Positions 1 to 61,640 of a DNA stretch of 64,000 nt are shown here, piece by piece. Made by a program: the position numbers and the translations under genes. Numbering within the stretch: position 1 is the stretch's first letter; each line of letters starts with the position of its first letter. Origin of the DNA: Candidatus Bipolaricaulota bacterium (GTDB lineage Bacteria > Patescibacteriota > Patescibacteriia > UBA11705 > DATKZF01); NCBI GenBank assembly GCA_035528115.1, contig DATKZF010000002.1, positions 5,751 through 69,750 on the forward strand. Direction: 5' to 3'. Below the pieces are notes generated by a model that was not told the origin of the DNA, searched no databases, and saw only the letters and a list, made by a program, of their open reading frames with translations.

Positions 1-159
1 ACAAACAAAAAAGAACGGTGATAATCCGTTCGTTAAATCAATGAACCCGTCGGAACTGTCGCACAACACCGAGTATGCGGTTACGTGAAGAAGAAATTAT
101 TGACTTTTCTTTTCAATTTTAATTGGGCTCTTTTCAATTTTTTCTCTCAGAAATGAAGA

Positions 160-191
160 GGGGCAGGATTGCGAAGTTGCAATCCTGCCCC
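160..191 (-). terminator. hairpin ggggcaggattgc-gaagtt-gcaatcctgcccc downstream of small minus-strand ORF
   Basis: Perfect inverted repeat read directly. Downstream tract is only weakly U-rich. Confidence 0.3.
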
Positions 192-210
192 GATGTGGCA
201 CTGCGTCGTG

Positions 211-417
211 CTACGGCTTGAACTCGTCGCGCGTACCGATCTGACCCGGCTGCAGGTTGGAAGGCAGGGCGTCGGAATTCGTCGCCCATACGATCTTCCC
301 CGAACTCGAGGGGTACACCGGATCGCCACCGCTGCCGATGTGGACCGACTCACCCTGTCCCTTGCTGAAGCGGACGGGCTCACCCTGCCCACTCGTGAGA
401 TGCACACTTCTTGCCAT
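211..417 (-). CDS. small GC-rich hypothetical protein (68 aa, GQGEPV/GQGESV internal repeat) inside the split attC insertion
   Basis: ORF preceded by GGAGG 5 nt upstream of the ATG (minus strand). A perfect 13-bp-stem hairpin (160-191) follows its stop. Composition differs sharply from surroundings. Confidence 0.3.
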   Translation of the reverse strand: MARSVHLTSGQGEPVRFSKGQGESVHIGSGGDPVYPSSSGKIVWATNSDALPSNLQPGQIGTRDEFKP

Positions 418-796
418 GATGGCCTCCTATCTCCGTTACGGAGTATTTACTGAAGGTACAAGGATTTACCCAAAACGAGCTGTCCTCACCCTCAGGCAAA
501 GATACATTACACCACCCTATGTAATCTGTCAATGGTAGGGTGACCCACGACGAAAGAATTGAAAAGAGCCCTAAATTAAGGAAAAAAAATCAATAATTTC
601 TTCTTCACTCCACCCAAATCCCGCTCTTGAAATTGGAGGTTTGAAGTGATAAAATAGGTTTGTTGTTAAGTGAAAGTTTGTACTGTAAATGTAGGGCGGG
701 ACTTCGCATACTCGGGAACGTTAGCCGAAATTGGGCTGTTTTAATTCCTACATTTAAGATATAATTCACTTACTAATTAACCTAACCCAAATCATT

Positions 797-1411
797 ATGG
801 AATCAAAAAGCAATGTGTGGGCAATCGCCCTCGCCATCATCATCACCGCAGTTGTTGTCGGCGGTGGAATATACTGGTGGCAACAAGACAAAGTCGTTCA
901 GGAAACACCCTCAACGGTGACAACTGATACAACAGACACAACAACTGCGGACAAAGAGGAGCCAAAAGAACCTCTAACTTATTCAACAAGTGGCGTCTCC
1001 GCCTCTGTTTCAAAAACGACAGCACCATTTGGTTACACCTCTGATCAATTGGTTTCAATGGCAGAAGAATGCGGTAATAGTCAAACGGCAAGTTATTTCA
1101 GTAATTTGGTTTCTCAATTCAGCGGTGCAACCAAAACCGTCTACAACTTCAAATATACTGGTGCTAGCCAAGAATCTGACACTTTCGTCGTAACACTTTT
1201 ACCAAACGAAGCAGGCTACTCATCGCTTAATGATTTCAAAAAGGACTTTGATCAGTGTTACGCCGGCGGAGACGCTTATCCTAAAATGCTAAATAGTAAT
1301 TGGCTCCTCTTTGTCAACTCCTGCGGAACAGGTTTTGATGATGGCTCGGGCAAACCGATTGGATGCCAAGAAGTTCGTGATGTTGTAGAACCAACGCTTA
1401 AACTGAATTAA
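797..1411 (+). CDS. hypothetical membrane-anchored/secreted protein (cassette ORF)
   Basis: N-terminal hydrophobic helix AIALAIIITAVVVGGGIYWW, then Thr/Asp-rich linker. No recognisable catalytic motif. Confidence 0.5.
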   Translation: MESKSNVWAIALAIIITAVVVGGGIYWWQQDKVVQETPSTVTTDTTDTTTADKEEPKEPLTYSTSGVSASVSKTTAPFGYTSDQLVSMAEECGNSQTASYFSNLVSQFSGATKTVYNFKYTGASQESDTFVVTLLPNEAGYSSLNDFKKDFDQCYAGGDAYPKMLNSNWLLFVNSCGTGFDDGSGKPIGCQEVRDVVEPTLKLN

Positions 1412-1425
1412 AAAAACAGCCCAAC

Positions 1426-1554
1426 ATCGGCTAACACGCAGTATGCGGTTTCGCTCCCGTTGGTCGCTACACCCATATTTGGCAGTGGTAAGCTCCTCCG
1501 TCGCAAATTTTACCACTGCCAAACATCGCATACTGCGGAACGTTATGCGTAATC
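1426..1554 (+). repeat. attC-like structured repeat 1
   Basis: ggctaacacgcagtatgcgg ... ccgcatactgcggaacgttatgcgtaat. Inner hairpin tttggcagtggtaag/ttaccactgccaaa. Conserved cacccatattt module. Confidence 0.6.
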
Positions 1555-1969
1555 TCTTATTTTCCTTTGTTGTACCACCAAAGTAACCTGAGCACTTAAC
1601 GGGCTTTCCTTCGTTTAGCGAGGAAAAAACAAACTGAACAATTGCTTTGCAACTGTATATAACAAATACTAAACGGTTCGTTTCACTCTCCCAAATTTTT
1701 GCCAATGAACGGGGGATTTCTTTGCTAAATGTAACATCTAAGTAGTTACAATAAAAAGATTTAAATACTCTAGAGTACCTACCATTAACTATGAACTCAA
1801 AAACTACTATTAATGGAATTAAATCTTTAATCTTAGTAGTTATGGGTATGATGCTTTAAACGCATCACATTGTCTTTTCTCTTCTTAAAAATTTTTGAAG
1901 TTGGTTTCTCCTGTGGTGTTCATTTCTGATTAAAACCACCTATAAAAAAATAACTAGGAGGCATTAAAA

Positions 1970-3589
1970 ATGAAAACCGAAACAAGAATAATAACTGCAG
2001 CACTTCCCTTTGTAAATAATATCCCTCATCTGGGTAATATTATTGGTAGCCATCTTCCGGCAGACATATTTGCAAGATTTTGCAGATTGAAGAATTATAG
2101 AACCATTTTTGTTGGAGGTACTGATGAGCATGGCACAGCAATAGAGTTTGCTGCACAAATCCAAAAGAAAACACCAGAACAATTATGTACTGAACTATAC
2201 CAAGAACATAAAGAAATTTATGATTGGTTTAAGATTAGTTACGACAATTTCTCCAGAACTTCAAGAACAATCCATCATGAATTAGTCAAAGACTTTTTCC
2301 TTAAATTATACAAAAACGGATTTATAACAGAAAAAACCATCAAAATTCCATTTTGCCTAAAATGTAAAAAAGGATTAGCAGATAGATATATTACGGGAAT
2401 TTGCCCTCACTGTAGTTATGAGCAGGCAAATGGAGATCAATGTGAAAAATGTGCTACTTTAATTGATCCAATAGAATTAATTAATGCTCATTGTTCTGTC
2501 TGCAAATCAAAAGAAGTAGAATTTAGAGATACTAAACATTTATTTCTGGATTTAAGAAGTATTTCTGGAGATATTGAAAAATGGATTGATAATAATAAAA
2601 ACCTCCGACAACAAGTTAGGAATCTTGCAAAGGGATGGTTAAAACAGGGAATCCAAGAAAGATGTATTACTAGAGATTTAAAATGGGGTGTTCAAGTTCC
2701 TTTAGAAGAATATAAAGACAAAGTATTCTACGTTTGGTTTGATAATGTGATTGGATACATTTCTGCAACTTATGAACTTTTAGGTGAGGAAGCACTTGAA
2801 CTTTGGAAAGATAAAAATGTAAAGACATACTATTTTCTTGGAAAAGACAATATCCCTTTCCATACTATCTTTTGGCCTGGACAAATAATCGGACAAAAAG
2901 AATTTGTCTTGCCTTATAATGTAGTTGGCTACCAATATCTTAATTTTGAGGGACAAAAATTTTCAAAAAGTAAGAAAATAGGGATATTTTCAGATCAAGT
3001 AAAAAATAGTAATGTTCCTCTTGATTATTGGAGATTTTATTTAACAAACATTCTTCCAGAAACCAAAGACACTGATTTTTCAGTTGAAGATTTTCAAGAA
3101 AGAATCAATAAAGAACTTATTGGCAACTTTGGAAATTTTGTAAACAGAACCTTAAATTTCATCTGGAATAAGTTTGATGGTAAAGTACCCAAAATCTCTA
3201 ATATTGACGAAGAACTAGAAAAAGAAATCAATCAAAGAATAAAAAAGATTGAGGAATGTTACGAAAAATGTGATCTTCGGGAAGTGCTGCAGGAAATTCT
3301 AAAATTATCAGATTTGGGAAACCAGTATTTCAACAAAAAAGAACCTTGGAAAACAGGTGATAAAGATTGCTTAGCATACTGCTATGAACTTTGCAGAATA
3401 CTATCAGTATTGTTTTCTCCAATAATTCCAGACTCAACTGAGAAATTAAGAATTTTGTTGAATACTGAATATAAAGAGTTGAAAATAAACGGAAGGGAAA
3501 AGACAATTAACAAACCTGAAATCTTATTCAAGAAATTAGAGAATGAAGATTTGGACGAGTTTAAACTTAAAGCAAAGAAATCCCCTTGA
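1970..3589 (+). CDS. metG: methionyl-tRNA synthetase (no C-terminal tRNA-binding extension)
   Basis: Class I aaRS HIGH-type motif HLGN, KFSKS (KMSKS) motif, two Cys knuckles CPHC...CEKC and CSVC. AGGAGG RBS 7 nt upstream. Confidence 0.9.
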   Translation: MKTETRIITAALPFVNNIPHLGNIIGSHLPADIFARFCRLKNYRTIFVGGTDEHGTAIEFAAQIQKKTPEQLCTELYQEHKEIYDWFKISYDNFSRTSRTIHHELVKDFFLKLYKNGFITEKTIKIPFCLKCKKGLADRYITGICPHCSYEQANGDQCEKCATLIDPIELINAHCSVCKSKEVEFRDTKHLFLDLRSISGDIEKWIDNNKNLRQQVRNLAKGWLKQGIQERCITRDLKWGVQVPLEEYKDKVFYVWFDNVIGYISATYELLGEEALELWKDKNVKTYYFLGKDNIPFHTIFWPGQIIGQKEFVLPYNVVGYQYLNFEGQKFSKSKKIGIFSDQVKNSNVPLDYWRFYLTNILPETKDTDFSVEDFQERINKELIGNFGNFVNRTLNFIWNKFDGKVPKISNIDEELEKEINQRIKKIEECYEKCDLREVLQEILKLSDLGNQYFNKKEPWKTGDKDCLAYCYELCRILSVLFSPIIPDSTEKLRILLNTEYKELKINGREKTINKPEILFKKLENEDLDEFKLKAKKSP

Positions 3590-3693
3590 GATAGTCTCGC
3601 TTTGCTCGTGAAATAATAGGTTCATTGGCAAAAACTACGGAAAGCCCTGTGCTCAGGAAAATAAGAGACTTCTCCGTTCCCTTCGGTCACTAC

Positions 3694-3824
3694 GACCACG
3701 CTGCGCTCTCCTCCTTTGGTCGTCGGGACGCATAACAGCGATTATCCGAGAAATCCCTCGGCTCGGGATTTCTCCAAATTTTGGCTACGCCAAAACTTCG
3801 GATAATCGCGATGTTAGGTGAAAT
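3694..3824 (+). repeat. attC-like structured repeat 2 with upstream conserved module ccacgctgcgctctcctcctttggtcgtcggg
   Basis: gcataacagcgattatccgag ... cggataatcgcgatgttaggtgaaat. Inner hairpin ttttggctacgccaaaa. Confidence 0.6.
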
Positions 3825-3943
3825 GCCCTTATTGGCTACTATTAATATGATTTTCCAATGGTTGATTTAAGCACTTTTATTAGTAAATGGATTATTATGA
3901 TAAACTAAATTCACTTAATTTATAAATTTTTAAGTTACCAATT

Positions 3944-5149
3944 ATGTCTAATACCGACCACAGAATCAAAGCTTATAATCCATCGGGTTTTTTTTGGATG
4001 AGTTTACTTTTTAGCCCTATGTGCGTTTTGATTATGAAATATCAAAACAGCAAAACTTTACCTAATGGCAAACTAATTAGGAAGCAAACAAATAAGTATT
4101 TATGGATTTTTATTTTTATACTTCTTGTGATTTTTGCATCCATTTTTTGGGAATCTTACACTTTAGCAAAGTGGGCGTATGATCAAAATAATGCACTTCT
4201 TTTAATCGAAATTAATACTTGGGGTTTTGATTTACATTCTGTTAAAACAGCGCTAAATGAATCTGCAAAACAATCACCTATTTTAAATGCTGCTATAAAC
4301 ATGAGCGATTACAGATCAATTTTCAATTTTATTGCCTGGATAATTTTTGCTTATTTTCTTGGCACCTCAGCTAAAACAACAGAATTGCCTGAATTCAATA
4401 AACTTAAGGAAAGCAAGAAATTGTACTCAAAAGCTCCGCTCCTTCCTATTATTCTTGGTATTGTAATTTTAGTAGGCGTTAATTATGCAATGGTTTATAG
4501 TTCCGCCTACAGTGCAAGCTATACCGCCAAGTATTTTTCACCAAAAACCAATGATTTGTTTGCGGAAGAAGAAGTTCCTCCAACAGAAGAAGGTAATTTA
4601 AATGAAATCACACCTCCATCAATTACCGATGATTCAGATAATGATTTAGTTATAAAAGAAGACGTTACTCCAACAGAAGAAAGTAATGTTTCAGTTAATA
4701 ATATTCAATTAAGCAATAAAACATTTACACTAAAATATCCAAAAGATTATCAATTCGAGAAAATTGATGACAGAAACTATTTAATAAAAAAAGGAGGGAA
4801 TGAACTCTGGAAAATAAACTTCAGAACCCTTGCTGATGTTGAAGAGTTAGACAAAAAATGCCCGCCAGATGACTGCATGCGTAACGAAGTTCCTCTGATA
4901 CAAACTGATCGGTTTGAATATGAAATGAAATTATGGAAGGTTAAGGCAGATGCACAAAAGGATATTAATAAGGTAGATTTTGAATTTGATAGCTATCCAG
5001 TAGGCCACGATGTTGGTTATTTTCATTCATTTTCAAAATATTTCGATGATGTCAGAGTTGCATTTACAGGATATGACCCCAGTGATACTGGCTCAGCTTC
5101 ATTCGATTTTATGGCCGAATTTGGCTTGTTGATAGAATTCACTTACTGA
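3944..5149 (+). CDS. hypothetical integral membrane protein
   Basis: Several predicted TM helices in the N-terminal half, then an acidic Pro/Thr/Glu linker and a C-terminal globular region. Shares a cassette with the next ORF (no repeat between them). Confidence 0.45.
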   Translation: MSNTDHRIKAYNPSGFFWMSLLFSPMCVLIMKYQNSKTLPNGKLIRKQTNKYLWIFIFILLVIFASIFWESYTLAKWAYDQNNALLLIEINTWGFDLHSVKTALNESAKQSPILNAAINMSDYRSIFNFIAWIIFAYFLGTSAKTTELPEFNKLKESKKLYSKAPLLPIILGIVILVGVNYAMVYSSAYSASYTAKYFSPKTNDLFAEEEVPPTEEGNLNEITPPSITDDSDNDLVIKEDVTPTEESNVSVNNIQLSNKTFTLKYPKDYQFEKIDDRNYLIKKGGNELWKINFRTLADVEELDKKCPPDDCMRNEVPLIQTDRFEYEMKLWKVKADAQKDINKVDFEFDSYPVGHDVGYFHSFSKYFDDVRVAFTGYDPSDTGSASFDFMAEFGLLIEFTY

Positions 5150-5179
5150 AAGCTACAAAATTAACAACTTATAAGTAAA

Positions 5180-5899
5180 ATGAAATTAGAACATTACCTA
5201 CAGGAAAACTTTAAAGAACCAAATTTATCTGCGCTGCCCAGATATTTAAAGCTGTCTATTTTTTGGCCTAATTTTTTTAGAAAATTGATCAATAGCTCTG
5301 AATTTAAAGGCTACACTGGTAAATTGATAGGCATAGCTATTCTTTTGGTTGAATTTGGAGTTATTTATTATGTTGTGAATTTATTTTCCATTCTTTTTGT
5401 CTATGGATACTATTCTTTGATTTATTTTCTTGATGGAGAGTTGTTGAACTCTTATAAAAGCATTGAGCATTTAAAACATTATCAAAATTACGTATTTTAC
5501 TGGCTCAATTATTTATTTAGCTTACCGAGTAATATTATTTTACAAAGCCTGCTTTATACTGCGATTGTTTATGCAGAGACTGCCGTTGGTTCGTTCCTAG
5601 TTGCAATTTGGCTTAGGAATAATAAGGACATAAAATTTAAGAAAAAAATAGTTGCTAACTATCCGAATGTTGATTCTTTTAAAGCTTTTTATTCTAAAAA
5701 CGACTTTAAAGAGGCGGCTAAAATCCTCAAGGAATACAAAAGTGCGACGTATTCTCAATTAATCAAAAAGTATCCCAAAAAGATTATCGATTTATTAGTG
5801 CTCGGTGATCACATTTCTTTTGTTGGCGGTAAAAAATTAACCAGAATGGCGTGCATTAAATGTATTGAAGAGGACAAAGATGAGTGTAATTGTAAGTAA
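5180..5899 (+). CDS. hypothetical membrane protein with C-terminal Cys cluster (CIKCIEEDKDECNCK)
   Basis: Hydrophobic helices at residues ~45-140. 30 bp downstream of previous ORF. Confidence 0.4.
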   Translation: MKLEHYLQENFKEPNLSALPRYLKLSIFWPNFFRKLINSSEFKGYTGKLIGIAILLVEFGVIYYVVNLFSILFVYGYYSLIYFLDGELLNSYKSIEHLKHYQNYVFYWLNYLFSLPSNIILQSLLYTAIVYAETAVGSFLVAIWLRNNKDIKFKKKIVANYPNVDSFKAFYSKNDFKEAAKILKEYKSATYSQLIKKYPKKIIDLLVLGDHISFVGGKKLTRMACIKCIEEDKDECNCK

Positions 5900-5944
5900 A
5901 TACTAAAAGTGCTTAAATCTTTGCTTGAGAAACAATAAGGGCAC

Positions 5945-6100
5945 AACACCTAACAAAGTTTGTGGGGTTCATAAATTTCGCTAATTTGATGCTTAAATAG
6001 CGGTACCAAAATTTATTCTCCCAAATGCTTCGGCGGTGAGTCGCTCCGCTCCAAATTATACCGCCTCGCACTTCCCACAAACAGAAACGTTATACGACAT
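5945..6100 (+). repeat. attC-like structured repeat 3
   Basis: cacctaacaaagtttgtgggg ... cccacaaacagaaacgttatacgacat. Internal ctccaaatt and gcttcggcgg hairpin. Confidence 0.55.
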
Positions 6101-6147
6101 ATGACTTCGGGGGCACATTTATATATTACAAAGTTTATTTTTAAAAT

Positions 6148-6909
6148 ATGAAACCCATTTACATTAAAAAAGAGGTCGCACTCAAAAAAGTTTCAGCAAA
6201 ATACAAGCCAATTGTTAAAGATGTTAAATCTGAATTGCTGAAATTTTCTGATAAGATTCACAGCATTTATTTGTATGGAAGTGTTGCCACAGGAAAAGCA
6301 AAATCTCCAACCTCTGATTTAGATTTAGTTGTGGTTCTAAAAGCAAAACCAACATCAAAACTTAAAACTCAATTAAAAGAATTAGAAAATTCACTATCAC
6401 AAAAATATCAAAAAATATTCAGAGAAGTTGGTTTTGCAATCACTTACAAAAATGAAGTTTTAAGAGGCAAAGAAGCATTCGGTTGGAGATTTTTTCTCAC
6501 AATTTTAAGCGTGAAAATTTTTGGAGATAATCTTTTTCAAAAAGAAATGAAGTTTAGCCCGACAAATAAATTAGCAAGAAATCTGCATTCAGATGTTGAT
6601 GAAAATATTGAAGAAGCAAAGAAAAAAATCAAATCTTCAAACGATCAAGAGGCTAAACTTCAAATAAAATCAATAATGAAAAAGATTATCAGGACAGCCT
6701 TCTCTATTGTCATGCAGGATGAGAATTATTGGACTACTGATCTTGATGAAATGACAAAAATTTTCACTAAACATTATCCTGAAAAGAAACAACAAATAAA
6801 TGCTGTTTTGAAATTAGCAAAAAGCAAATCGCCAGATAAAAAGAGTGCGACCTCAATTCTTAATAATTTTGGTAAATGGGTTTCATCGGAATATTTTAAA
6901 AGAGTGTAA
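6148..6909 (+). CDS. nucleotidyltransferase, AadA/ANT(3'')(9)-like aminoglycoside adenylyltransferase fold
   Basis: N-terminal Pol-beta NTase motif LYGSVATGKAKSPTSDLDLVVVL (hG[GS]...DhDh) and ~150-aa helical C-terminal domain, as in AadA. Classic integron cassette gene class. Confidence 0.6.
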   Translation: MKPIYIKKEVALKKVSAKYKPIVKDVKSELLKFSDKIHSIYLYGSVATGKAKSPTSDLDLVVVLKAKPTSKLKTQLKELENSLSQKYQKIFREVGFAITYKNEVLRGKEAFGWRFFLTILSVKIFGDNLFQKEMKFSPTNKLARNLHSDVDENIEEAKKKIKSSNDQEAKLQIKSIMKKIIRTAFSIVMQDENYWTTDLDEMTKIFTKHYPEKKQQINAVLKLAKSKSPDKKSATSILNNFGKWVSSEYFKRV

Positions 6910-6911
6910 TG

Positions 6912-7093
6912 TGCCCCCTGCGTCATACGCTGCGCTCCACTTCGTTACGCTTGGGGACGCTGCGCTTTCGTCGCTACGCTCCTCACCCTCGTATAACAAG
7001 GATTATGAGGAAAATGGCTCGGCTCGCCATTTTCCCAAATTTGCTCCACTTCGTTCCGCAAACTTCTCATAATCCTGACGTTATACGCAATTC
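6912..7093 (+). repeat. attC-like structured repeat 4 with upstream GC-rich module
   Basis: cgtataacaaggattatgagg ... cctcataatcctgacgttatacgcaat. Upstream cgctgcgctc module shared with repeats 2 and 5. Confidence 0.55.
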
Positions 7094-7240
7094 AAAAAAT
7101 ATTTTTCTTAAGGTAAAATGATGATAGGCTTTCTAAAAGGAATAAATTTGATTTTTTCTTTATTATAGAGGGGGATAATATTGTGTTTTCTCCGCTACAA
7201 AAACGATTTATTTATAAATTTTAGATTCTAAACATAAAGT

Positions 7241-8046
7241 ATGGAAACAATAATTAGAAAAGATTCGGAAATTAAAGGGAAACACTCGCTGTTTTTTGTG
7301 GAGTTCATGGAAATGAGAAAGCTGGAGTATATGCGGTAAATAAAATTCTAAATAATATTGAAATCAAAACAGGAATTGTTTATTTTGTTTTTGCTAATCC
7401 TAAGGCTATTGAAGAAAACAAAAGATTTATTGATAAGAATTTAAACAGATGTTTTTTTGATAATCAAAATGGTGAGTCTTATGAAGAAAAAAGAGCAAAA
7501 GATTTAATTAAAATTTTAGAATTATCCGATGCCCTTCTTGATGTTCATGCAAACAATAGTCCAGAGACCATACCATTTGTAATTACCGACAATGGTTTTG
7601 ATGTAGTCAAAAATATGAATTTTGAAATTATTGCTACTGGTTTTGATAATCTTGAACCTGGGGCAACTGATGGATTCATGAAAAACAAAGGGAAAATAGG
7701 AGTTTGTATAGAGTGTGGATATTCTGGCAAAAGCGAAGAAAATATAGATATAGCATACAATTCGATTATTCAATTTTTACAACATTTTAATGCTATAGAC
7801 CACATAATCCCAAGCTATAATATCAAACAAAAAGTATTACATGTTGATAAAGTTCAAAAAGTAACATCAAAAGAGTTTAGTCTAATAAAGACATTTAAGG
7901 ATTTTGAAATAATTAAAAAAGGTTTTGTTATTGCTAAAGACGAAATGAATGAATATTCTGCTGACAAGGATAGAGTAATTTTATTTGGAACGCCTGGAAA
8001 GCCGATTGGAGCAGAAGCATATATTTTAGGTACTTGGATAGAATAA
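7241..8046 (+). pseudogene. succinylglutamate desuccinylase/aspartoacylase (AstE/AspA, M14-like) family gene, frameshifted
   Basis: ATG frame gives METIIRKDSEIKGKHSLFF then a stop. The +1 frame continues VFCGVHGNEKAGVYAVNKIL (HGNE zinc-ligand motif) through to DHIIPSYNIKQ...ILGTWIE. The break falls in a T6 homopolymer at 7292-7297. A T7 run would restore one ORF. Confidence 0.6.
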
Positions 8047-8173
8047 GGAGTTTTGAAAATGAAATTCACCCCCAACCCCTCTTTCATTTTTCAAAACGGA
8101 AAAAATCAAATTTATAAGAAATGAAGAAAGCATATCATAATGAATAAGAACGAAAAATATTTTTTGAACTCAA

Positions 8174-8315
8174 GCCACGCTGCGCTCTCCTCCTTTCAGT
8201 CGTCGGGGCGTATAACAAGGGATATACGGTTCAGCCCTCGGCTCGAGCATCACCCAAATTTTTCTTTCGCTTACGCTACAGAAAAACTTCGTATATCCCA
8301 AACGTTAGGCGAAAT
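8174..8315 (+). repeat. attC-like structured repeat 5 with upstream module ccacgctgcgctctcctcctttcagtcgtcgggg
   Basis: cgtataacaagggatatacgg ... cgtatatcccaaacgttaggcgaaat. Confidence 0.6.
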
Positions 8316-8396
8316 TGCTTTTTGCTTTTACAAAGAAGAAGGCCACCGACGATGTCGCCGATGGCCTTGTGGATCTGGGGTGCGGGCGGCTCCTCG

Positions 8397-8552
8397 CTAA
8401 CCCTTCTTTGACCAGGGAAAGTCCGAAGCGAACCAGATCAGGAGGATGATGGCCCAGAGTGGGCTCGCTGACTGTGTGATGTACATCCCATAGCCGATGA
8501 GTCCTGCGCCACTGACCAGAGCCACGGCGCCACCTACGTCCTTCGCGTTCAT
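8397..8552 (-). CDS. small hydrophobic peptide (51 aa, two predicted TM helices), GC-rich, reverse-oriented in cassette
   Basis: Minus-strand ORF MNAKDVGGAVALVSGAGLIGYGMYITQSASPLWAIILLIWFASDFPWSKKG with GAGGT 6 nt upstream. Below the 60-aa ORF-track cutoff. About 60 % GC versus about 30 % around it. Confidence 0.3.
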   Translation of the reverse strand: MNAKDVGGAVALVSGAGLIGYGMYITQSASPLWAIILLIWFASDFPWSKKG

Positions 8553-8754
8553 GAGGTACCTCGCTAGTTGCGAAAAAACAGATCCCCAACCATGAGGAGC
8601 CGCCCTTTCTGGTTGACAGAAAAACTACTCCAAACCACGTTTGGACAATGACTTTAACATATTACTACATCTAAGTCAACCCCTCACCGAGCAAAAAGCA
8701 ATTTGTTCGCTCCGCTCACATTTGCTCCCGCTGGTCGCAAATTAAAAAAGCAAC

Positions 8755-8891
8755 TACGCCTAACACTGCATAGCCGGCTCGTTCTTTTCCGAAAGAGCTC
8801 ACCCAAATTGCCTCCTCAACAAATATGGTGTAAAATTCTACCACACTTATCTCGTCGGCAACTTCGGCTATGCAGGAACGTTAGCTGAAAT
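8755..8891 (+). repeat. attC-like structured repeat 6
   Basis: cgcctaacactgcatagccgg ... ccggctatgcaggaacgttagctgaaat. Inner hairpin tggtgtaaaattctaccaca. Confidence 0.6.
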
Positions 8892-8939
8892 AGCCTCAAA
8901 TCCTTTCTTGTTTGTAGAAACTCACTAAATAGTAAATAT

Positions 8940-10133
8940 ATGCAAATTATCAAAAAAATATTCAACGGTAAAACCAGCAAATCAGTGTTAACTATGGGCA
9001 TTGTTGCAACATTTCTCCAAATATCAATAGCCGCTTATGCTGTAATTAAGCCAATAAGTCTGAAGAGTGATTTAACACTTTTTTATGGGATTGTAGTTTT
9101 AGAGCTAATATTTTTCCCAATAAGTCTTTCAATAATTTTTTCTTACCTCCTAAATAAAGTTAAGTGGCTTGATAAAAAATCATTTCTGATCACATTCCTT
9201 GTTACGTCTTTATTTATTGTAACCGCTGTAATTTTGGGACAAATGGCTTGGGAACATATCATTCCTTGGGAATTTTGGCTTTTTTATAAATATATAGAAA
9301 TACCTCTAGTCTTTACAGGACTAATTGGCATTCCCTTGATTTATCTTTTGGGATATTCCGGTTGGACAGTTTTCACCTTTGTAATGATAATTGGAATATT
9401 TGTTACCGCTTTTTTGGTTGCTGCTCTTTATTCCTACACAACCCATCTTGCAATCAATAAGAAAAAACAATCTTTTAGAATAATCCTTACAGTAGCCCTC
9501 ATTTTATCTATTGGATGGGGGATATTTCAGGGAGTAAATGAAGCATATGTAAAAAGATTATCTCTAAAAGGTGAGTGTGCTGCAGGACTTAACTTTTACC
9601 AGTGTGACAATTACAGTAACCTTGGAAATAGTTACCACAGATTAAATGATGACATCTATTACAACCTAGGCTATGTAAACGCTGTAAAAATCGACGATGT
9701 CGACATTAATTCCTTTCAAGTGATCAATATCGATTCACTGCGTGTGTCAATTGCCAAAGATAAATACAGAGCATATGCCAATGGGGAAATAATACCAATA
9801 AACAATATTGATTCATGGAAAATCATGGAAGGAGTAGATAATTGGGGCTACTCATCAGACGATAAAAATGTATTTTTCGGAACAAATATTCTAGACGGTG
9901 CCAATCCAGAAAGTACATTTCTCATTGAAAACAGATATGCATGCAATAATGATTTTGTTTACTTTGGAGATAAAATTATTGAGGACGCAGATCCAAGCTC
10001 CTTTGTAACACTGAATTGTGGCGGCTACACAAAAGACGATAAATCATACTATTTTTATGGAGAAAAAATTATTGAGGATGAAACTGGATGCAGAGGTCAA
10101 GATATAATTGACAGCAAATGTGAAATAAAATGA
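8940..10133 (+). CDS. hypothetical polytopic membrane protein with C-terminal extracytoplasmic domain
   Basis: About 6 hydrophobic helices in the first 200 aa. C-terminal 190 aa are hydrophilic and Asp/Asn/Tyr-rich. Confidence 0.45.
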   Translation: MQIIKKIFNGKTSKSVLTMGIVATFLQISIAAYAVIKPISLKSDLTLFYGIVVLELIFFPISLSIIFSYLLNKVKWLDKKSFLITFLVTSLFIVTAVILGQMAWEHIIPWEFWLFYKYIEIPLVFTGLIGIPLIYLLGYSGWTVFTFVMIIGIFVTAFLVAALYSYTTHLAINKKKQSFRIILTVALILSIGWGIFQGVNEAYVKRLSLKGECAAGLNFYQCDNYSNLGNSYHRLNDDIYYNLGYVNAVKIDDVDINSFQVINIDSLRVSIAKDKYRAYANGEIIPINNIDSWKIMEGVDNWGYSSDDKNVFFGTNILDGANPESTFLIENRYACNNDFVYFGDKIIEDADPSSFVTLNCGGYTKDDKSYYFYGEKIIEDETGCRGQDIIDSKCEIK

Positions 10134-10153
10134 CAAGAGATTCGAGGCTACAT

Positions 10154-10244
10154 CAGCTAACAGCGTATATCTGGCTACACTTCGTTTCGCCCATATTACT
10201 CCCTGCGGTCGCAACATCAGATATGCGCGAACGTTAGGTGAAAT
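10154..10244 (+). repeat. attC-like structured repeat 7
   Basis: cagctaacagcgtatatctggc ... cagatatgcgcgaacgttaggtgaaat. Confidence 0.6.
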
Positions 10245-10302
10245 ATTTTTTGAAAATTTTTTAGATTTTTAGTATTTTTAATAGGCTTTAAGTAATATTA
10301 CT

Positions 10303-10746
10303 ATGAAGAAGGAAACTATTCGCCAAATTCAAAGAAAAGTTATTAGATTGTTGCGTAAAAACAATAATAAACCTCTTTATCTGTCATCAACAGACAATTG
10401 TAGTGAAATTGCACGGTTGGTTGGTTGTTGGATTTTTGACAAATTACCTCAGGCTAAAATATATATTTTAAAAGGTAAAAATATACTAGGCACAAAAAAA
10501 TGCCATGACATTTTAGCAGTAGAATACGACAAGCGCATTTCCCTTATCGATCCAACAGTGTGGCAATTTTTCAAGAATAAAAAGAGTATTCTTATTAAAA
10601 CAACAGACAATTTGACGAATGGTTTATTTGAAGCCAGCAAAATATATCGCAGCAAATGGAAAGTCTCAGAAATATTTAAAAAGAATAATTATAAAAATGA
10701 TGAACTTAAGAAAATTGTAGCTTCAAATATTAAGGACTTAAAATAA
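10303..10746 (+). CDS. hypothetical protein (basic, Lys-rich)
   Basis: ORF only. No recognisable motif. Confidence 0.4.
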   Translation: MKKETIRQIQRKVIRLLRKNNNKPLYLSSTDNCSEIARLVGCWIFDKLPQAKIYILKGKNILGTKKCHDILAVEYDKRISLIDPTVWQFFKNKKSILIKTTDNLTNGLFEASKIYRSKWKVSEIFKKNNYKNDELKKIVASNIKDLK

Positions 10747-10817
10747 AAAACGTTATAACACCAGAGAGAAAGCCTATCAAAAATCAAAATTAAGGAACAA
10801 AAATTTTCAAAAAATAC

Positions 10818-10845
10818 AACACCTAACACGCACTTACCAATACAG
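10818..10845 (+). repeat. attC-like 5' remnant (cacctaacacgcacttacc) fused to truncated kinase fragment
   Basis: Only the R''/L''-like half is present. No matching 3' half. Confidence 0.35.
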
Positions 10846-10853
10846 TTGATATT

Positions 10854-11090
10854 TTGGATTTGTTTGATGCAGTTTTTTTGCTTCAAATTTCTGCCGATAC
10901 AATAAGAAAGAGATTGATTGAAAGAACAGAGGTAGGAGCATTCGGTAAATCGGATGATGAAATAGCTGATATCATGAGATGGAAAGATGAATTTGTCAAA
11001 ACAATGATAACGCGTGGCGCAATATCAATTGACGCAGAGAAGGGTGTAAACGAAGTTGTTGAGGAAATTTTATTAAGGAGATTAAAATAA
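10854..11090 (+). pseudogene. C-terminal fragment of a P-loop kinase paralogous to 11141-11695 (truncated)
   Basis: LLQISADTIRKRLIERTE...EVVEEILL parallels FLDASPEVIRQRLTGRY...QVAELILN of the downstream kinase. No Walker A region is present. Preceded by an attC remnant. Confidence 0.45.
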
Positions 11091-11140
11091 TTTAACATTA
11101 GGCTGACTTATAGCAAAGCAGTCTTAATGCAAAAAAAAAT

Positions 11141-11695
11141 ATGAATAAACTCTATTTTATCAGCGGAGTGAATGGGGTGGGAAAAACCTCAATTATGCCT
11201 TTCCTAAAGACATTGTTGCCAAGTAATCAATTTGAAATACATGATTTTGATGAAAGAGGGGTACCGGAAAAGGCTGATGGTAATTGGCGTATTTCTGAAA
11301 CTAAACACTGGGTAGATTTAGGAGTAGGATTGGGATCAAGAGATAAAAACGTTATCGTTTGTGGATTTGTAAAACCCGCAGACTTTCAGGAAATGCTATC
11401 GGATGATTCACTTGGCATCACTTTGATTTTTCTCGATGCAAGTCCGGAAGTTATTCGTCAGCGTTTAACTGGTCGATATACAAAAGACGGTTATTTTGAT
11501 GAATCCCAAATGGTAATTGGCAAGCCAATTGATGTTTTTATTGATGGGAATATTTATATTTCAGGGCAAATGAAAAAAATATTTGAAGAATTAAATTGCT
11601 CAATCGTTGATACATCAAATTTAAGTCCAGAAGCAGTTGCAAGGCAAGTGGCTGAATTAATCCTAAATAATTTTAAAGTTTATATGGCCCCATAA
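11141..11695 (+). CDS. P-loop NTPase, small nucleotide/nucleoside kinase-like (AAA_33-type)
   Basis: Walker A GVNGVGKTS at residues 9-17. Size and layout typical of small kinases. Exact substrate unknown. Confidence 0.6.
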   Translation: MNKLYFISGVNGVGKTSIMPFLKTLLPSNQFEIHDFDERGVPEKADGNWRISETKHWVDLGVGLGSRDKNVIVCGFVKPADFQEMLSDDSLGITLIFLDASPEVIRQRLTGRYTKDGYFDESQMVIGKPIDVFIDGNIYISGQMKKIFEELNCSIVDTSNLSPEAVARQVAELILNNFKVYMAP

Positions 11696-11821
11696 AGGTG
11701 TTTTGGGCTTCGGGCATTCACCCCTTTAATTCCCCTTTGCCTTTCGCCCAAAACAGAAAAAGAAATTTGAAAATTTTTTAAAACAATTCCGACTGCTGTC
11801 GGAAAAAAGAAAAGGAATACA

Positions 11822-11931
11822 TCAGCTAACAACGAGTATCCGGTTACGGCTTTTATCCAAAAGCCTCCACCCAAATTTTTCTTCCGCTACGCTACAGAAA
11901 AACTTCGGATACTCGTAACGTTAGGCGAAAT
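11822..11931 (+). repeat. attC-like structured repeat 8
   Basis: cagctaacaacgagtatccgg ... ccggatactcgtaacgttaggcgaaat. The 3' arm has an extra GT relative to the 5' arm (unpaired bases). Confidence 0.65.
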
Positions 11932-11950
11932 AACACAATAAACATCTCTT

Positions 11951-12268
11951 ATGAAAAAGTTGAAATTTATTCTAAGCATAATTTTTTTAGCTTTCATTGC
12001 AATTTCAATAATTTCTTACAATTATTATTCGTTAATAGATAATCAATCGAACCATACGGGGTTAGATTTAATGAAAGTTAAAATATTCTATCTAGGATTT
12101 TCATTAATTGCGATTGTTGTAGCGCTAATAATAAAATCAAATAAAAAAGCTAAAAAAAATTTCATTATTTCCAGTATATTAGGATTAGTTTTCATTTTTA
12201 ACATTTGGATATTCGAAAAAACAGAAATTATGTTGTATTACGAAGATTGGGTTACCTGCTGCATGTAA
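11951..12268 (+). CDS. small membrane protein (3 predicted TM helices)
   Basis: Hydrophobic 105-aa ORF. Single-ORF cassette. Confidence 0.4.
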   Translation: MKKLKFILSIIFLAFIAISIISYNYYSLIDNQSNHTGLDLMKVKIFYLGFSLIAIVVALIIKSNKKAKKNFIISSILGLVFIFNIWIFEKTEIMLYYEDWVTCCM

Positions 12269-12284
12269 AATTATTGTGTTTCAT

Positions 12285-12396
12285 CGCCTAACAGCGTATA
12301 AACGGTTCCATTCGTTCACCCAAATTGACCAGTGATAAGCCTTCGGCTAGTATATCACAGGCCAACTTCGTTTATGCGCCGGACGTTACGCAAAAT
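12285..12396 (+). repeat. attC-like structured repeat 9
   Basis: cgcctaacagcgtataaacgg ... gcgccggacgttacgcaaaat, with imperfect stem. Inner hairpin ccagtgata/tatcacagg. Confidence 0.55.
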
Positions 12397-12416
12397 TCAA
12401 ATAACCCAAAATTATT

Positions 12417-13088
12417 ATGAAAAAACCACATTACCTTTCACCAGTTAGTAAAATATTTTCAGCTATCGCTGGCAGGACGGAACCAATGAAAGTAAGGATT
12501 GAAAATTATAATTTCGTAGTATTACCAAAAGTATTTCCATCTCATGAATTTAGAGCAGCAAAATGTCTCCCAAAAAGTATTAAAGAAATAATAAAAAACA
12601 AAACAGTACTATATATGGGTTGTGGTTTTGGTATGGTGGGTATTTATTCATTACATCATGGTGCGACAAAAGTTATACTAGCAGACATTAACCCGTATGC
12701 TGTTGAAAATGCAGAAATAAATAAAAAGTCACACAAATTCAGTGATGATCAAATAATGATTTACGAGAGTGATTGTTTTGATAATATCCCAAAACAGACA
12801 TTTGATGTATTAATATTCAACCCACCGTTTAATACTAATGGTAAACCTACAAGCGACGTATTAAGAAAATCTCTATGGGATCCGGGTTTTACTTCATTAA
12901 AAAAGTTCCTGGGAAGTGCCAAGGACTATATGAATATTAGCAGTAAACTCCTGATATACTACTCAGACAGAGGTGATATTAAAACGTTGGAAAAATTATT
13001 TGGTCAATATTTGTATAGATGGAAGCTTTGGAAAGTGTTCAATAAAGACCAAAAATTTGACAATAGGATCTATGTTCTTATTAAATAA
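12417..13088 (+). CDS. class I SAM-dependent methyltransferase (NPPF motif; HemK/RsmC-like small MTase domain)
   Basis: Gly-rich SAM motif LYMGCGFGMVGI, acidic ILADIN, and catalytic DVLIFNPPF. Confidence 0.65.
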   Translation: MKKPHYLSPVSKIFSAIAGRTEPMKVRIENYNFVVLPKVFPSHEFRAAKCLPKSIKEIIKNKTVLYMGCGFGMVGIYSLHHGATKVILADINPYAVENAEINKKSHKFSDDQIMIYESDCFDNIPKQTFDVLIFNPPFNTNGKPTSDVLRKSLWDPGFTSLKKFLGSAKDYMNISSKLLIYYSDRGDIKTLEKLFGQYLYRWKLWKVFNKDQKFDNRIYVLIK

Positions 13089-13125
13089 AATTATATTGGT
13101 AAATCCTATTAGGTTTTTTGAACTT

Positions 13126-13255
13126 CGTCTAACACGGCGTACACGATATTCCCTCGTTCACTCCGGTGGCCACTCGCTAGTCAGTCTCTCCGGCCGCGAG
13201 TGTACCACCTCCGTTCGCTCGGGACATCGCGTGACGCCGGAACGTTGCACAAAAT
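13126..13255 (+). repeat. attC-like structured repeat 10 (last in array)
   Basis: cgtctaacacggcgtacacgatattccc ... gggacatcgcgtgacgccggaacgttgcacaaaat. Confidence 0.5.
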
Positions 13256-13263
13256 CGCTCGCT

Positions 13264-51973: not shown

Positions 51974-52038
51974 AGGGATAGATAAATCTATCCCTTTAGG
52001 CTGACTTTGTCAGCCGGTTAGGTGGCGCTATGGCGCCA
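51974..52038 (-). terminator. three consecutive hairpins (gggatagataaatctatccc; ggctgactttgtcagcc; gtggcgctatggcgccac) downstream of giant gene, at the 33->65 % GC junction
   Basis: Perfect short palindromes read directly. T-rich tract after the first hairpin on the minus strand. Confidence 0.45.
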
Positions 52039-55000
52039 CGCCGCAGTCAAGAGGACACGAGTCCGGGGTCTCGTTCTGGGAGCAGAACAGATCCCCGCAC
52101 ACTTCCCCGCAGTCGGCCGGGCACGAGTTCGTGGTCTCGCTCGCCCGACAGACGGAATCTCCGCAAACGACGCCGCAGTCGGCTCGGCAAGAAACAGTAT
52201 CTTCACCGAGGCCGCAGAAGCCGTCGCCGCAGGACGAGCCACAGTCGCTCGCGCAAGTGACCGGCGTTTCAGGCGCCACGCACGCGCCGTCTCCGCAAAT
52301 CACCCCGCAATCGGCCGGGCAGTTGATGGTGTCCTCGCCGACTCCGCAGAAGCCGTTGCCACACGGTTCTCCGCAATCAGCCGGACACGTTCTGGTGTTT
52401 TCGTTCGCGCTGCAGAGTGTGTCGCCACACTCCCAGCCGCAATCGGCTTCGCAGTTCACGGAACTCTCGAAGCCGTTGCAAATGCCGTCTCCGCAGAGCG
52501 ACCCGCAATCCGCGGCGCAGTTGATCGAGGTTTCGACCGCCGCGTCACAGAAAGCGTCGCCGCAATTTTGGCCGCAATCGCCGGCGCAGTTCGCCGACGT
52601 CTCGCCTCCATTGCAGACATGGTCGCCACATCGGGTACCGCAGTCTGCTGGGCAATTCAGCGTGGTTTCGCCGGGAGTGCAGTCGCCGTTGCCGCAGACG
52701 CTTCCGCAATCTGCCGGACAAGTGGCGCTGTTTTCGTTCTGCGAGCAGTAGGCGTCGCCGCATTCCTGTCCGCAGTCCTCCTCGCAGATGGACGAATCCT
52801 CGCTCGCCCCGCAGGTCGTATCGCCGCAAGCGTCGCCGCAGTCGGCGGGACAGCTGGTCGTCGTTTCCGACTCCCCGCATGTACCGTCGCCGCAAGCATT
52901 GCCGCAGTCAGCCGGGCATGTCACCTGCGTTTCCGCGCCGTTGCAGGCATCATCACCGCAAACATATCCGCAATCGCTCGGACACGTCACCGTGTCTTCG
53001 CCGACACCGCAGATCTTGTTGCCGCAATTCTCGCCGCAATCGGCCGGGCACGTCCGGGTGTCTTCGTTCGGCGAGCAGTATGCGTCTCCGCATACCGCGC
53101 CGCAATCGCTTTCGCAGCTCACCGAGTTTTCCGACTCGCCACATACCATGTCACCGCAGGAATCCCCGCAGTCCACGGCGCAGCTTGCCGAAGTCTCGCC
53201 GGCCGCGCAGAAACCATCGCCGCATTCCAGGCCGCAGTCGGCCGGGCAATTCAGCGTGGTCTCGGTCCAGTTGCAGGCACCATCCCCGCAGGACGAGCCG
53301 CAGTCAAGTGGACAAATCCACGTGCCTTCGCTCATCGAGCAGTAGCCGTCACCACAGGATTCCCCGCAGTCCGGCAGGCAGGTGGCGCTGCTTTCGTTCT
53401 GCGAACAGTAGGCGTCGCCGCACTCCTGTCCGCAATCCGGTTCGCACGAGGACGAATCCTCGTTCCTGCCGCACGCGCCGTCCCCGCAGATATCGCCGCA
53501 GTCATCGGGGCAGCTCGTCGAGCTCTCGCTCGATCCGCATGTCCCGTCGCCACAGCTGTCTCCGCAGTCCGCCGGACACGTCGCGGAATTCTCGGCGCCG
53601 TTGCACGACGTATCGCCGCAGGTCGAGCCACAGTCCGCCGGACAAGAGGACGTATCCTCTCCGTTGCCGCAAACGCCGTTTCCACAACGCTCACCGCAAT
53701 CGTCCGGACACCTGACCGTGTTCTCTCCGCTACCGCAGAAGCCGTCACCGCAGTTCACGCCGCAATCGCTTTCGCAGCTCGCCGGAGTCTCCGACGATCC
53801 GCACACCGTATCACCGCAGGCATCCCCGCAATCCACGGCGCAGTTCGTCGAAGTCTCGCCGGCCGCGCAATAGGCGTCGCCACACTGCGCCCCACAGTCC
53901 GTGAGGCAACTCCAGGTGGTCTCGCCCCAGTTGCACACGCCGTCTCCGCAGCTCGGCCCACAGTCGGCCGGGCAGTTCATCGAGCCTTCGCTCGAAGAAC
54001 ACCACCCGTCGCCGCAGGATTCCCCGCAGTCCGTCATGCACGTAACCGTGGTTTCGGTCCCGTTGCAGGTTCCGTCACCACACTCAGTGCCGCAATCCAG
54101 CGCGCACGTCACCGTGTCCTCGCTGGTATCGCATGCCCCGTCTCCGCAGTACGGCCCGCAGTCCGCGGGACAGCTCGACGTCGTCTCCGACGCTCCGCAC
54201 GTCCCGTCGCCACAGGCGTCGCCACAGTCGCTCGGGCAGCTCGCCGGAGTCTCGGCTCCGTTGCATGCGGCGTCCCCGCAGTTCGTCCCGCAGTCATCCG
54301 GGCACGTCACCGAGCTTTCACTCGATCCGCACGCCGAATCTCCGCAGAAGTCACCGCAGTCCGCCGGGCAACTTCCCTCGTCCTCCGTAGCCGTATCGCA
54401 CTGACCATCGCCACACTGCGTGCCGCAATCGGTCGCGCAGGTCACGCTGGTCTCGCTTCCGTTGCACCTGCCGTCTCCGCAGGTGACCCCACAGTCAAAC
54501 GGGCAGCTCCACGTGCTTTCGCTCGTCGAGCAGTAGCCGTCGCCGCAGTAGTCCCCGCAGTCCGCCGGACAGGTCGCGCTCGTCTCCGAGTCCGGCGAGC
54601 AATACGCATCGCCGCACTCCACTCCGCAGTCCGCCTCGCAGCTTGCGCTGTCCTCGGTCGAACCGCAGGTGCTGTCTCCGCAGACGTCGCCGCAGTCCGC
54701 CGGGCACGTGGTCGAACTCTCGCTCGATCCGCATGTCCCGTCGCCGCAGGCGTCGCCGCAGTCCGCCGGACACGTCACGGACGTTTCCGAACCGTTGCAG
54801 GCGCTGTCGCCGCAAACAAATCCACAGTCCATCGGGCACGTAATCGTGTCCTCCTCAGGACCGCAGACCAGGTTGCCGCACGGCTCGCCGCAATCTGCCG
54901 GGCAAGTCAGCGTCGTTTCGTTCGGGGAGCAGTAGTTGTCCCCGCACTCAACGCCGCAGTCCGCCTCGCAACTCGCCGAGGTCTCCGACGATCCGCATGT

Positions 55001-59245: not shown

Positions 59246-59559
59246 GGTTTTCCTCCCGTGTTCGGCACTGTAAAGAAACGCGAAACTCAACTCTTGAGTT
59301 TTCGGTTGTCAAAGGTCAGCCAATTTGGCTGGAAGCAATGAAAAAGCAAAAAATTTTTCACTATTTCCAGCCAAATTTCATTCCCAAAGACGCAATTTTT
59401 GCACCTTATTAGGACAGCTAAACTTAACAAAAAAACATAGTTTTGTCAAGTTTTTTGGGCTATTTTTTAAATACACAATTTTTTGCCAATTTGTCAAGTT
59501 TATTTTTTAATAAATTTAGCCAAAACTTCCACTTATGAAGTCGATTTTAAACGGATTAA

Positions 59560-59625
59560 CTTACAATCAGAAAAGCGGCTCCAAACATGTTGGAACCGCT
59601 TCCTTTCCACCCGCATTGCGGGTAA
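59560..59625 (-). terminator. tandem hairpins (gcggctccaaacatgttggaaccgc; acccgcattgcgggt) downstream of 59638-61350 gene
   Basis: Read on minus strand: hairpins followed by TTTTCTGATT. Confidence 0.45.
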
Positions 59626-59637
59626 ATAAGTTAACGA

Positions 59638-61350: not shown

Positions 61351-61570
61351 GAAACCTTCTCCTTGCCGCGATTGCGGCTCCGTCTTGAACTTTTAGGCAA
61401 CTTGCCTATGGCTGAAAAGTAAACAAAAAGCCTCTCAAATCTACCTTTCAATCACAGGCAAATTCCGCTAAATTAACATATAAGTATATCATATTTAATC
61501 AAAAAAGTCAATAGTAAATAGAAAAAAACTCCAATTTTAACTTATTTTAGACAAATTTTTAAAATTAGAA

Positions 61571-61636: not shown

Positions 61637-61640
61637 CTTG

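Follow-up and report, generated by a model that had tools for sequence, protein, structure and literature searches.

Evidence for a conserved family of giant attC cassettes with a small antisense gene inside the site in Patescibacteria-like groundwater bacteria

Architecture of the site and its array

The stretch of DNA analysed in this study, in the following called the window, comprises 64,000 nucleotides of contig DATKZF010000002.1 from a Candidatus Bipolaricaulota bacterium, which is placed in the Patescibacteriota by the GTDB (assembly GCA_035528115.1). The contig around the window is referred to as L001, window position 1 being L001 5751, and further contigs used for comparison carry handles of the same kind. 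Close to its left end, at 61–726, the window holds one site of the attC type, i.e., of the type of recombination site found in integron gene cassettes, with a length of 666 bp and with a small open reading frame (ORF) of 68 aa on the minus strand inside it (Table 1). The arms of this site are those of an attC and, lying 625 bp apart, they pair specifically. Their L'' and L' segments (69–79 and 705–715) are perfect 11-nt complements, and the differences to the neighbouring site at 1429–1548, which has the L arms CGCAGTATGCG and CGCATACTGCG, are compensatory, which argues that the two halves belong to each other. An initial annotation of this DNA had already taken them for complementary halves of a single attC. 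With slightly refined coordinates this idea is borne out. The cassette boundary lies between G720 and T721, and TTAGCC of R' (720–726) pairs with GGCTAA in R'' of the next cassette at 1429–1435.

The site is part of an array of at least 14 sites on the same strand, namely three upstream in L001, the giant site itself and ten at 1425–13258 (covariance model, + strand), with the ordinary sites measuring 76–161 bp. When 12 uninterrupted sites are aligned, their AAC and GTT triplets show no variation, and compensatory changes occur in 10 of 16 stem pairs. The layout common to this family is R''-A-L''-G, followed by hairpin 1 with a perfect stem of 6–12 bp, TC(C/A)NCCCAWRT, hairpin 2 and L'-(G)RAAC-R'-GAAAT. 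The start of each cassette pairs with its own R'', a hallmark of cassettes that are cut and joined at G|TT. This applies to GTTAGCC(720) and GGCTAAC(1429), to GTTATGC(1542) and GCATAAC(3730) and, elsewhere in L001, to the pairs GTTATCG/CGATAAC and GTTATAC/GTATAAC. The complementarity of cassette starts and ends even continues for 20–60 nt past the R boxes (window 720–742 vs. 1413–1435, L001 4268–4330 vs. 5550–5619 and L022 1670–1695 vs. 2062–2087), so that a circular cassette would form a stem extended outward from attC. To our knowledge this is not a feature of classical attC sites.

Compared with the ordinary sites of the array, the giant site contains an added domain of 524 bp (85–608), which is positioned in hairpin 1. 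The upstream neighbour (L001 5611–5711) reads ...CGGTTAC-GGCTTTTCCGAAAGCC-TCCACCCAAAT..., the window reads ...CGGTTAC-GTGAAGAAG...(524 nt)...CTTCTTCAC-TCCACCCAAAT..., and the outer inverted repeat (IR) of the domain, IR-a, sits at the exact place which hairpin 1 takes between TTAC and TCCACCCAAAT in ordinary sites of the same family. This repeat is perfect over 19 bp, with two exact copies in the window compared with 0.11 expected by chance (≤3 mismatches). The inner repeat, IR-b (121–139/557–578), has a perfect core of 15 bp (125–139/557–571), and the first of the extended pairings mentioned above (720–742/1413–1435) resembles the IR-b box AATTGGGCTSTTTT. The long terminal inverted repeats that had been noted initially are thus real; the element of ~620 bp which they were thought to bound was drawn too large, as 609–700 is native to the attC and consists of its motif TCCACCCAAAT and hairpin 2. 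Folding of the bottom strand as DNA predicted the three-way architecture that the uninterrupted neighbour also has; in this fold the large domain is closed by IR-a and IR-b (z = −7.6). The GC content is 0.26 at 85–146, 0.57 at 147–540 (initially estimated as about 55% for the core) and 0.63 within the ORF. No target-site duplication was found at any junction, and there are no extra copies in the 64-kb window.

The cassette that owns the giant site begins at L001 5716, about 35 nt left of the window start, and extends to G720. Its body of ~94 nt is devoid of any ORF. The body stretch GTCGGAACTGTC (within 1–60) pairs with the cassette start, and a terminator-like hairpin on the minus strand (31–13) would, if functional, stop antisense read-through. 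The motif GAAAGTTTG(T) occurs in hairpin 2 (672–683), in this body (L001 5750–5762) and at the attI-like sites of L029, L022 and L032, at the latter 15–20 nt upstream of the crossover. It may be an accessory binding site; its recurrence is not significant within the window alone.

Table 1. Features of the giant attC cassette. Positions refer to the window unless a contig is named.
Feature	Position	Strand	Details
Cassette body, 3' part	1–60	+	no ORF; cassette start at L001 5716, G|TTGTACGAAAT
attC 5' arm	61–84	+	R'' GCACAAC 61–67, A68, L'' CCGAGTATGCG 69–79, G-TTAC junction 80–84
IR-a, left arm	85–103	+	GTGAAGAAGAAATTATTGA; base of expanded hairpin 1
IR-b, left arm	121–142	+	AATTGGGCTCTTTTCAATTTTTT; module boundary box, common to copies outside the attC frame
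Intrinsic terminator of the 68-aa gene	160–191	−	13-bp stem, then T-rich tail
68-aa ORF	211–417	−	orphan family; Shine-Dalgarno (SD) sequence GGAGG 427–423
Putative promoter and structured 5' untranslated region (UTR) with hairpin	428–532	−	−35 TTGACA 532–527, 17-nt spacer, −10 TAATGT 509–504
5' UTR hairpin of the 68-aa gene	431–505	−	L003 9925–9990; L008 1150–1215; L009 495–560; L010 9925–9985
IR-b, right arm	557–578	+	AATTGAAAAGAGCCCTAAATT
IR-a, right arm	590–608	+	TCAATAATTTCTTCTTCAC
Single-stranded motif conserved in the family	609–619	+	TCCACCCAAAT; between hairpin 1 and hairpin 2
Hairpin 2	619–701	+	stem TCCCGC 619–624/GCGGGA 696–701
attC 3' arm	702–726	+	CTT, L' CGCATACTCGG 705–715, GAAC 716–719, R' GTTAGCC 720–726

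A family of giant sites with exchangeable cargo

Relatives of the giant site were found by an exact-match scan of metagenome contigs for window 609–629. This yielded 27 loci, of which 24 exhibit the same frame and three are unrelated coding sequence. From left to right the frame consists of G|TTGTACGAAATTCCGAC... with the ~94-nt body, GTACAAC-A-CCGAGTATGCGG-TT(G/A)C, IR-a and IR-b, then the variable segment, and then IR-b', IR-a', TCCACCCAAATCCCGCTCTTG followed by hairpin 2, and CTTCGCATACTCGG-GAAC-G|TT. Starting at G|TTGTACGAAATTCCGAC, the body itself is conserved in about 20 metagenome loci. Homology among the members stops at G|TT on both sides, and upstream of the family cassettes lies either another attC or a non-attC sequence ending in ...AACGA|GTT. 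The region from TTAC to TCCACCC measures 408–680 nt, the relatives' sites as a whole about 550–820 bp, and the region always includes a small antisense ORF of 53–133 aa with an SD sequence (AGGAGG or a close variant). While the flanks are 75–95% identical between members, the ORF segments are unrelated, and the 14 cargo ORFs share no mutual similarity. Conservation extends, in the majority type, to the promoter TTGACAGGCGGGGTGCGATCATGGTATAAA... and to the 3' region that follows the stop codon, CGCCCCGCCGCCCCGCTCATCACGCCCTG...terminator, the variable part being essentially the ORF. The cargo of L019 has one homologue cluster, which also comes from a Patescibacteria metagenome-assembled genome (MAG). 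What is conserved is therefore a frame with unrelated cargos. An insertion which splits an attC, as initially supposed, and inactivates it is not supported: IR-a takes the place of the native hairpin 1, the frame is kept in 24 contigs and the part that varies is the inner ORF.

The stems of this frame were evaluated in an alignment of 14 frames in which the cargo had been replaced by Ns. IR-a is paired in 97.7% of the cells, with 14 of its 19 pairs changed on both sides, IR-b in 92.8% (7 of 19 pairs), and the stem of hairpin 2 in 100%. The observed pairing exceeds all 500 shuffles and all slid controls. Four unrelated sequence types of IR-a exist next to single compensatory changes (e.g., in L032), and this covariation indicates that IR-a is constrained to pair and not to a particular sequence. 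IR-b, in contrast, keeps a common core (GRGCYYTTTT) across its variants.

Hairpin 2 contains a promoter-like site in sense orientation, with TTGAAA (627–632), a 17-nt spacer and TAAAAT (650–655), preceded in the window by TG. Among the 14 members the −35 element is invariant and the −10 element reads TAAAAT in 13 (TAGAAT in L025), while the spacer varies. This is the pattern expected of a real promoter, and the site, which faces the next cassette, probably drives it.

Mobility and the linked recombinase

One and the same cassette, with a cargo of 92 aa, occurs behind an attI-like sequence (L030, L043) as well as behind an attC (L036, L040) and has two different downstream neighbours. The differing array contexts together with the end of homology at G|TT argue that the giant site is recombination-competent. 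Just past the attI-like junction (...AACGA|GTT), the contigs L043, L022 and L044 encode a divergent IntI-like tyrosine recombinase, which in L044 adjoins parAB. Its best solved relative is VchIntIA (PDB 2A3V), with residues 10–182 of the query aligning to 4–179 of the chain and residues 203–277 to 243–317.

The 68-aa gene and its module

The minus-strand ORF with its GGAGG sequence and terminator stands as initially annotated. Across five homologues it is mostly the third codon positions that differ (e.g., 7/5/19 and 7/3/19), which on the level of sequence identifies the ORF as a real coding gene under purifying selection. Its promoter is a consensus match read from the sequence, and a strict promoter scan did not list TTGACA-17-TAATGT because the −10 element has a G at position 5. 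The protein belongs to an orphan family, with three clusters at 90% identity and a single one at 50% identity among 1.84 billion representatives. An exhaustive profile search with four homologues returned only its own cluster, the remaining matches being false positives from repeats or low-complexity sequence. Neither the 68-aa protein nor nine further cargo ORFs gave a Pfam match, and a tblastn search against phages and plasmids as well as a search of viral contigs for the IR-b box yielded no match. The AlphaFold model from a 4-sequence alignment was unusable (predicted local distance difference test score, pLDDT: 42).

Homologues of the 68-aa protein come from a Candidatus Magasanikiibacteriota MAG and from further contigs. 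The homologous modules share the promoter, the 5' UTR hairpin, the terminator style and the IR-b boxes with the window, and they share neither IR-a nor the giant attC. In L008 the module opens a DUF1653 cassette, directly behind an ordinary attC. In L010 it adjoins a degenerate attC, for which no second half was found in L010, which leaves this context ambiguous. A 31-bp terminator-like hairpin (AAAAACGAGC..GCTCGTTTTTTTGTT) occurs as a direct repeat on either side of the L010 module and its degenerate attC half (9751–9781 and 10301–10333). DUF1653 genes adjoin the module in both L010 and L008, in differing orientations. The 5' UTR forms a conserved nested hairpin, whose apical CTCATTTCGAG-like loop is invariant and whose covariation is weak (4 of 17 pairs compensatory). 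No Rfam match was obtained for this hairpin, which may be a cis-regulatory RNA.

The window copy thus combines a frame like that of L034 with a module like those of L008, L003 and L010. The sequence common to both is the IR-b box plus about 8 nt, which makes IR-b a likely point of exchange, be it by homologous or by site-specific recombination. The idea that the cargo is foreign by virtue of its high GC content was rejected, as the backbone has 40–46% GC and includes genes of 60–67% GC, only the cassette array being AT-rich. At 52000–64000 the GC content rises from about 0.40–0.46 to 0.60–0.67 within genes for very large, secreted-looking proteins with Cys-rich repeats (CGDGxC...ETxxxCPxDCG), all on the minus strand (52028–59290, 2420 aa; 59638–61350; 61641–63233), so that the genome itself holds GC-rich genes.

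Interpretation

We consider it likely that the locus represents a structure-preserving giant attC cassette, belonging to a widespread and conserved family from uncultured, Patescibacteria-like groundwater bacteria, with a small gene inside the folded site. In the single-stranded state IR-a and IR-b would zip up and thereby bring the arms together, and the modelled fold suggests that the site could then adopt the recombination-competent form of an ordinary attC. An IntI-like tyrosine recombinase would subsequently cut at G|TT, and the gene would move as part of the site. The junction of the excised circle would be expected to read ...GGGAAC-G|TTGTACGAAAT, i.e., ...CTCGGGAAC-G|TTGTACGAAATTCC. 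In duplex DNA the gene would be expressed from its own predicted promoter, independently of its position in the array and against the direction of the latter, while the sense promoter in hairpin 2 would drive the downstream cassette. The IR-b boxes would be the places where cargo units are exchanged.

Several points weigh against this interpretation. Folding and promoter activity are predictions, and covariation of inverted repeats in DNA could also come from one protein which binds both arms. The L stem is continuous and contains no extrahelical bases, and the spacers are asymmetric in the arm opposite to the canonical one (1–2 nt in the 5' arm vs. 4–5 nt, GAAC, in the 3' arm, top strand). 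The best family match of the recombinase is the integron integrase model TIGR02249, which it hits in two stretches and with 233 bits below the cut-off of 265. It also lacks about 43 residues of VchIntIA (chain residues 180–242), so that the IntI-specific domain is missing. We take these residues to be the region which contacts the extrahelical bases in the structure of VchIntIA with its Vibrio cholerae repeat (VCR), and L stems without bulged bases are consistent with a recombinase that has no such domain. The system would accordingly work like an integron and yet differ from canonical integrons in both the IntI-specific domain and the extrahelical bases. Neither the window nor its own contig yielded an integrase; the contigs of this genome break at an attC (L001 24–142), and owing to this break the genome's own integrase was not located. 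The 68-aa module occurs in a giant attC only in the window and nowhere else, and in L003/L011 it lies in a locus without detectable attC. Finally, the presence of unrelated ORFs between the same promoter and terminator is not explained by a giant attC as such.

We regard it as possible, though rather unlikely, that the giant attC is a natural vector for the capture of ORFs and a visible intermediate of cassette genesis. Unrelated ORFs would be inserted or swapped, nearly from start to stop codon, into a frame that stays fixed and consists of the attC arms, the closing stems, promoter, SD sequence and terminator, and the captured ORFs would be mobilised by an integron-type system whose integrase lacks the canonical extra domain.

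To a similarly small degree it is conceivable that the IR-b-bounded units form a second, nested layer of mobile cassettes, for which the giant attC is a preferred docking site. Their exchange at the IR-b boxes would depend either on a dedicated site-specific mechanism or on activity of the same recombinase at secondary sites. This overlaps with the giant attC cassette as proposed above and concerns the way in which the cargo enters. It would account for the IR-b box with its about 8 nt being the only sequence common to the window element, the chassis family and the free-standing modules of L008, L003 and L010, for cargo that varies between fixed boxes, and for an IR-b which holds its common core while IR-a changes freely. 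Moreover, sequence resembling IR-b is present on both sides of the ORF in the next cassette (729–742/1413–1426). However, the modules have no associated recombinase, IR-b exhibits no obvious core-site architecture, and homologous recombination between shared boxes of 25–35 bp would lead to the same picture. Promoter and terminator, too, are conserved in the majority type, where it is essentially the ORF that varies and not the whole IR-b-bounded unit.

A one-off insertion of an element like a miniature inverted-repeat transposable element (MITE), with terminal repeats at 85–139 and 557–608, which targeted and split an ordinary attC, appears improbable. Perfect terminal inverted repeats would fit such an element, as would the occurrence of the IR-b-bounded 68-aa module in different contexts of other genomes and the fact that promoter and terminator of the window are unlike those of the family's majority type. 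Yet IR-a, IR-b and attC are conserved jointly in 24 loci around a variable interior, which is the opposite of a transposon family, and IR-a abuts the conserved TTAC and TCCACCC exactly like the native hairpin. There is neither a target-site duplication nor a transposase nor an extra copy in the 64-kb window, and cassettes with giant sites occur in several array contexts, including the first position after attI. Of the initial guess of a miniature element or embedded cassette, the second part comes close, as the IR-b-bounded 68-aa module is found outside the frame in L003/L011, L008 and L010; the miniature transposon does not fit the varying interior and the missing target-site duplication. The accompanying statement that the element is neither a class C group II intron nor of the IS1111 type agrees with the lack of any Rfam, Pfam or transposase match (Rfam: whole window at the gathering threshold, 1–800 at E ≤ 1).

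It is slightly less probable still that the repeats are not attC at all, but elements resembling repetitive extragenic palindromes, structured RNA genes or Xer-type binding sites, with the inverted repeats as protein-binding sites. A recombinase without IntI-specific domain that scores almost as well against the archaeal XerA, together with the absence of visible extrahelical bases, would be in line with this. On the other hand, AAC and GTT are invariant while the stems covary in otherwise free sequence, each gene unit has one site in one orientation, the complementarity of cassette start and end is exact at G|TT, and the attI-like junction adjoins the divergent recombinase with VchIntIA as its best solved relative. 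An assembly chimera, in which a GC-rich fragment was misjoined into AT-rich repeat DNA, can practically be dismissed despite the sharp GC step from 0.26 to 0.63 and contigs which break at attC sites, because three assembly records from two samples (L001/L012, L002) do not differ at all over window 1–1600 and the same architecture occurs with other cargos in 24 contigs of many metagenomes.

Comparison with known systems

With a total size of a few tens to about 150 bp, attC sites are much smaller than the site described here. They have an unpaired central spacer and a variable terminal structure, which ranges from a loop to branched forms, and extrahelical bases near L'' on the bottom strand (PMC5027507). 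The sites of the window share with integron attC sites and the long, species-conserved VCRs of Vibrio cholerae the R''/L''...L'/R' arms with AAC and GTT, stems conserved in structure and not in sequence, and the G|TT crossover, and also the unpaired central spacer and the variable terminal structure (branched in VCRs). Both systems have one site per cassette, arrays in one orientation and near-identical sites on unrelated ORFs. Unlike in attC sites and VCRs, the ORF of the giant sites lies inside the terminal structure instead of the cassette body, and long covarying stems close a loop of 0.4–0.7 kb. Further differences are the lack of extrahelical bases in the L stem, the pairing past the R boxes and the integrase without IntI-specific domain.

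DNA inside an attC is also known from group IIC-attC introns, which carry outward promoters (PMC3001079), and from IS1111-attC elements. In contrast to both, the interior of the window element measures only 524 bp and contains no ribozyme, reverse transcriptase or transposase; furthermore, a variable interior lies between conserved boundaries in a conserved host attC, and the position in the terminal hairpin preserves the fold. MITEs and integron mobilisation units are likewise short, non-autonomous and bounded by terminal inverted repeats. They differ from the giant sites, which exhibit no target-site duplication, have conserved flanks around a variable interior and carry repeats that covary as a stem.

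Gene-less cassettes with promoters have been described for the superintegrons of Vibrionaceae and the integrons of oral Treponema (PMC11014356, PMC6557892). Like these, the cassette studied here has an ORF-less body and a conserved, here predicted, sigma-70-like promoter directed towards the downstream cassette; unlike in these, the promoter lies inside the attC, in hairpin 2, and the site also holds an antisense coding unit. Toxin-antitoxin cassettes and other self-promoted cassettes of sedentary chromosomal integrons have their own promoter, lie opposite to the array and are expressed independently of Pc. The 68-aa gene resembles them in its own predicted promoter, its orientation opposite to the array and an expression that would be independent of Pc, whereas it is a single small ORF without recognisable toxin or antitoxin domain and lies in the attC and not in the body. 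The window element resembles a combination of a gene-less promoter cassette and a self-promoted reverse cassette inside one attC.

Implications

attC sites are usually thought of as short hairpins which follow a gene. Here a whole gene with predicted expression lies inside the site, the predicted fold of which is kept by covarying stems, and this site is conserved in many groundwater metagenomes, its unrelated cargos numbering at least 14. This widens the concept of an attC. Detectors which cap the length of a site or require the IntI-specific domain would miss such giant sites. The pairing of an integrase without extra domain with sites without extrahelical bases points to co-variation of enzyme and site. 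A review from 2021 lists the phyla bearing integrons without Patescibacteria and names cassette formation as an outstanding question (PMC8618304). The arrays described here document integron-type arrays in Patescibacteria-like genomes, and the pattern of a fixed frame with variable ORFs bears on the formation of gene cassettes. If the ORF-capture idea were true, it would offer a concrete and testable route for attaching genes to attC sites. A literature search on integrons, attC sites or clusters of attC sites lacking integrases (CALIN) in Patescibacteria or the candidate phyla radiation (CPR) returned nothing relevant. No description of giant gene-bearing attC sites was found either, in a literature coverage that was incomplete, so that an earlier description is possible.

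Further cassettes of the array

Independent assemblies of this genome end inside the same attC (L001 1–145, L002 1–10), which suggests population heterogeneity or repeats at this position. A complete methionyl-tRNA synthetase gene (1970–3589, 539 aa; Pfam tRNA-synt_1g) is located between two attC sites of the array (window 1549–3819). As the boxes GTTATGC at 1542–1548 and GCATAAC at 3730–3736 match, a normally essential housekeeping gene lies within a cassette. Upstream of the window, L001 136–4127 forms one cassette (GTTATAC/GTATAAC) with four genes, which encode an APH-like kinase, a PHP phosphoesterase, a nucleotidyltransferase and a glycosyltransferase. This operon of four genes recurs in a different array of a related genome (L013–L015).

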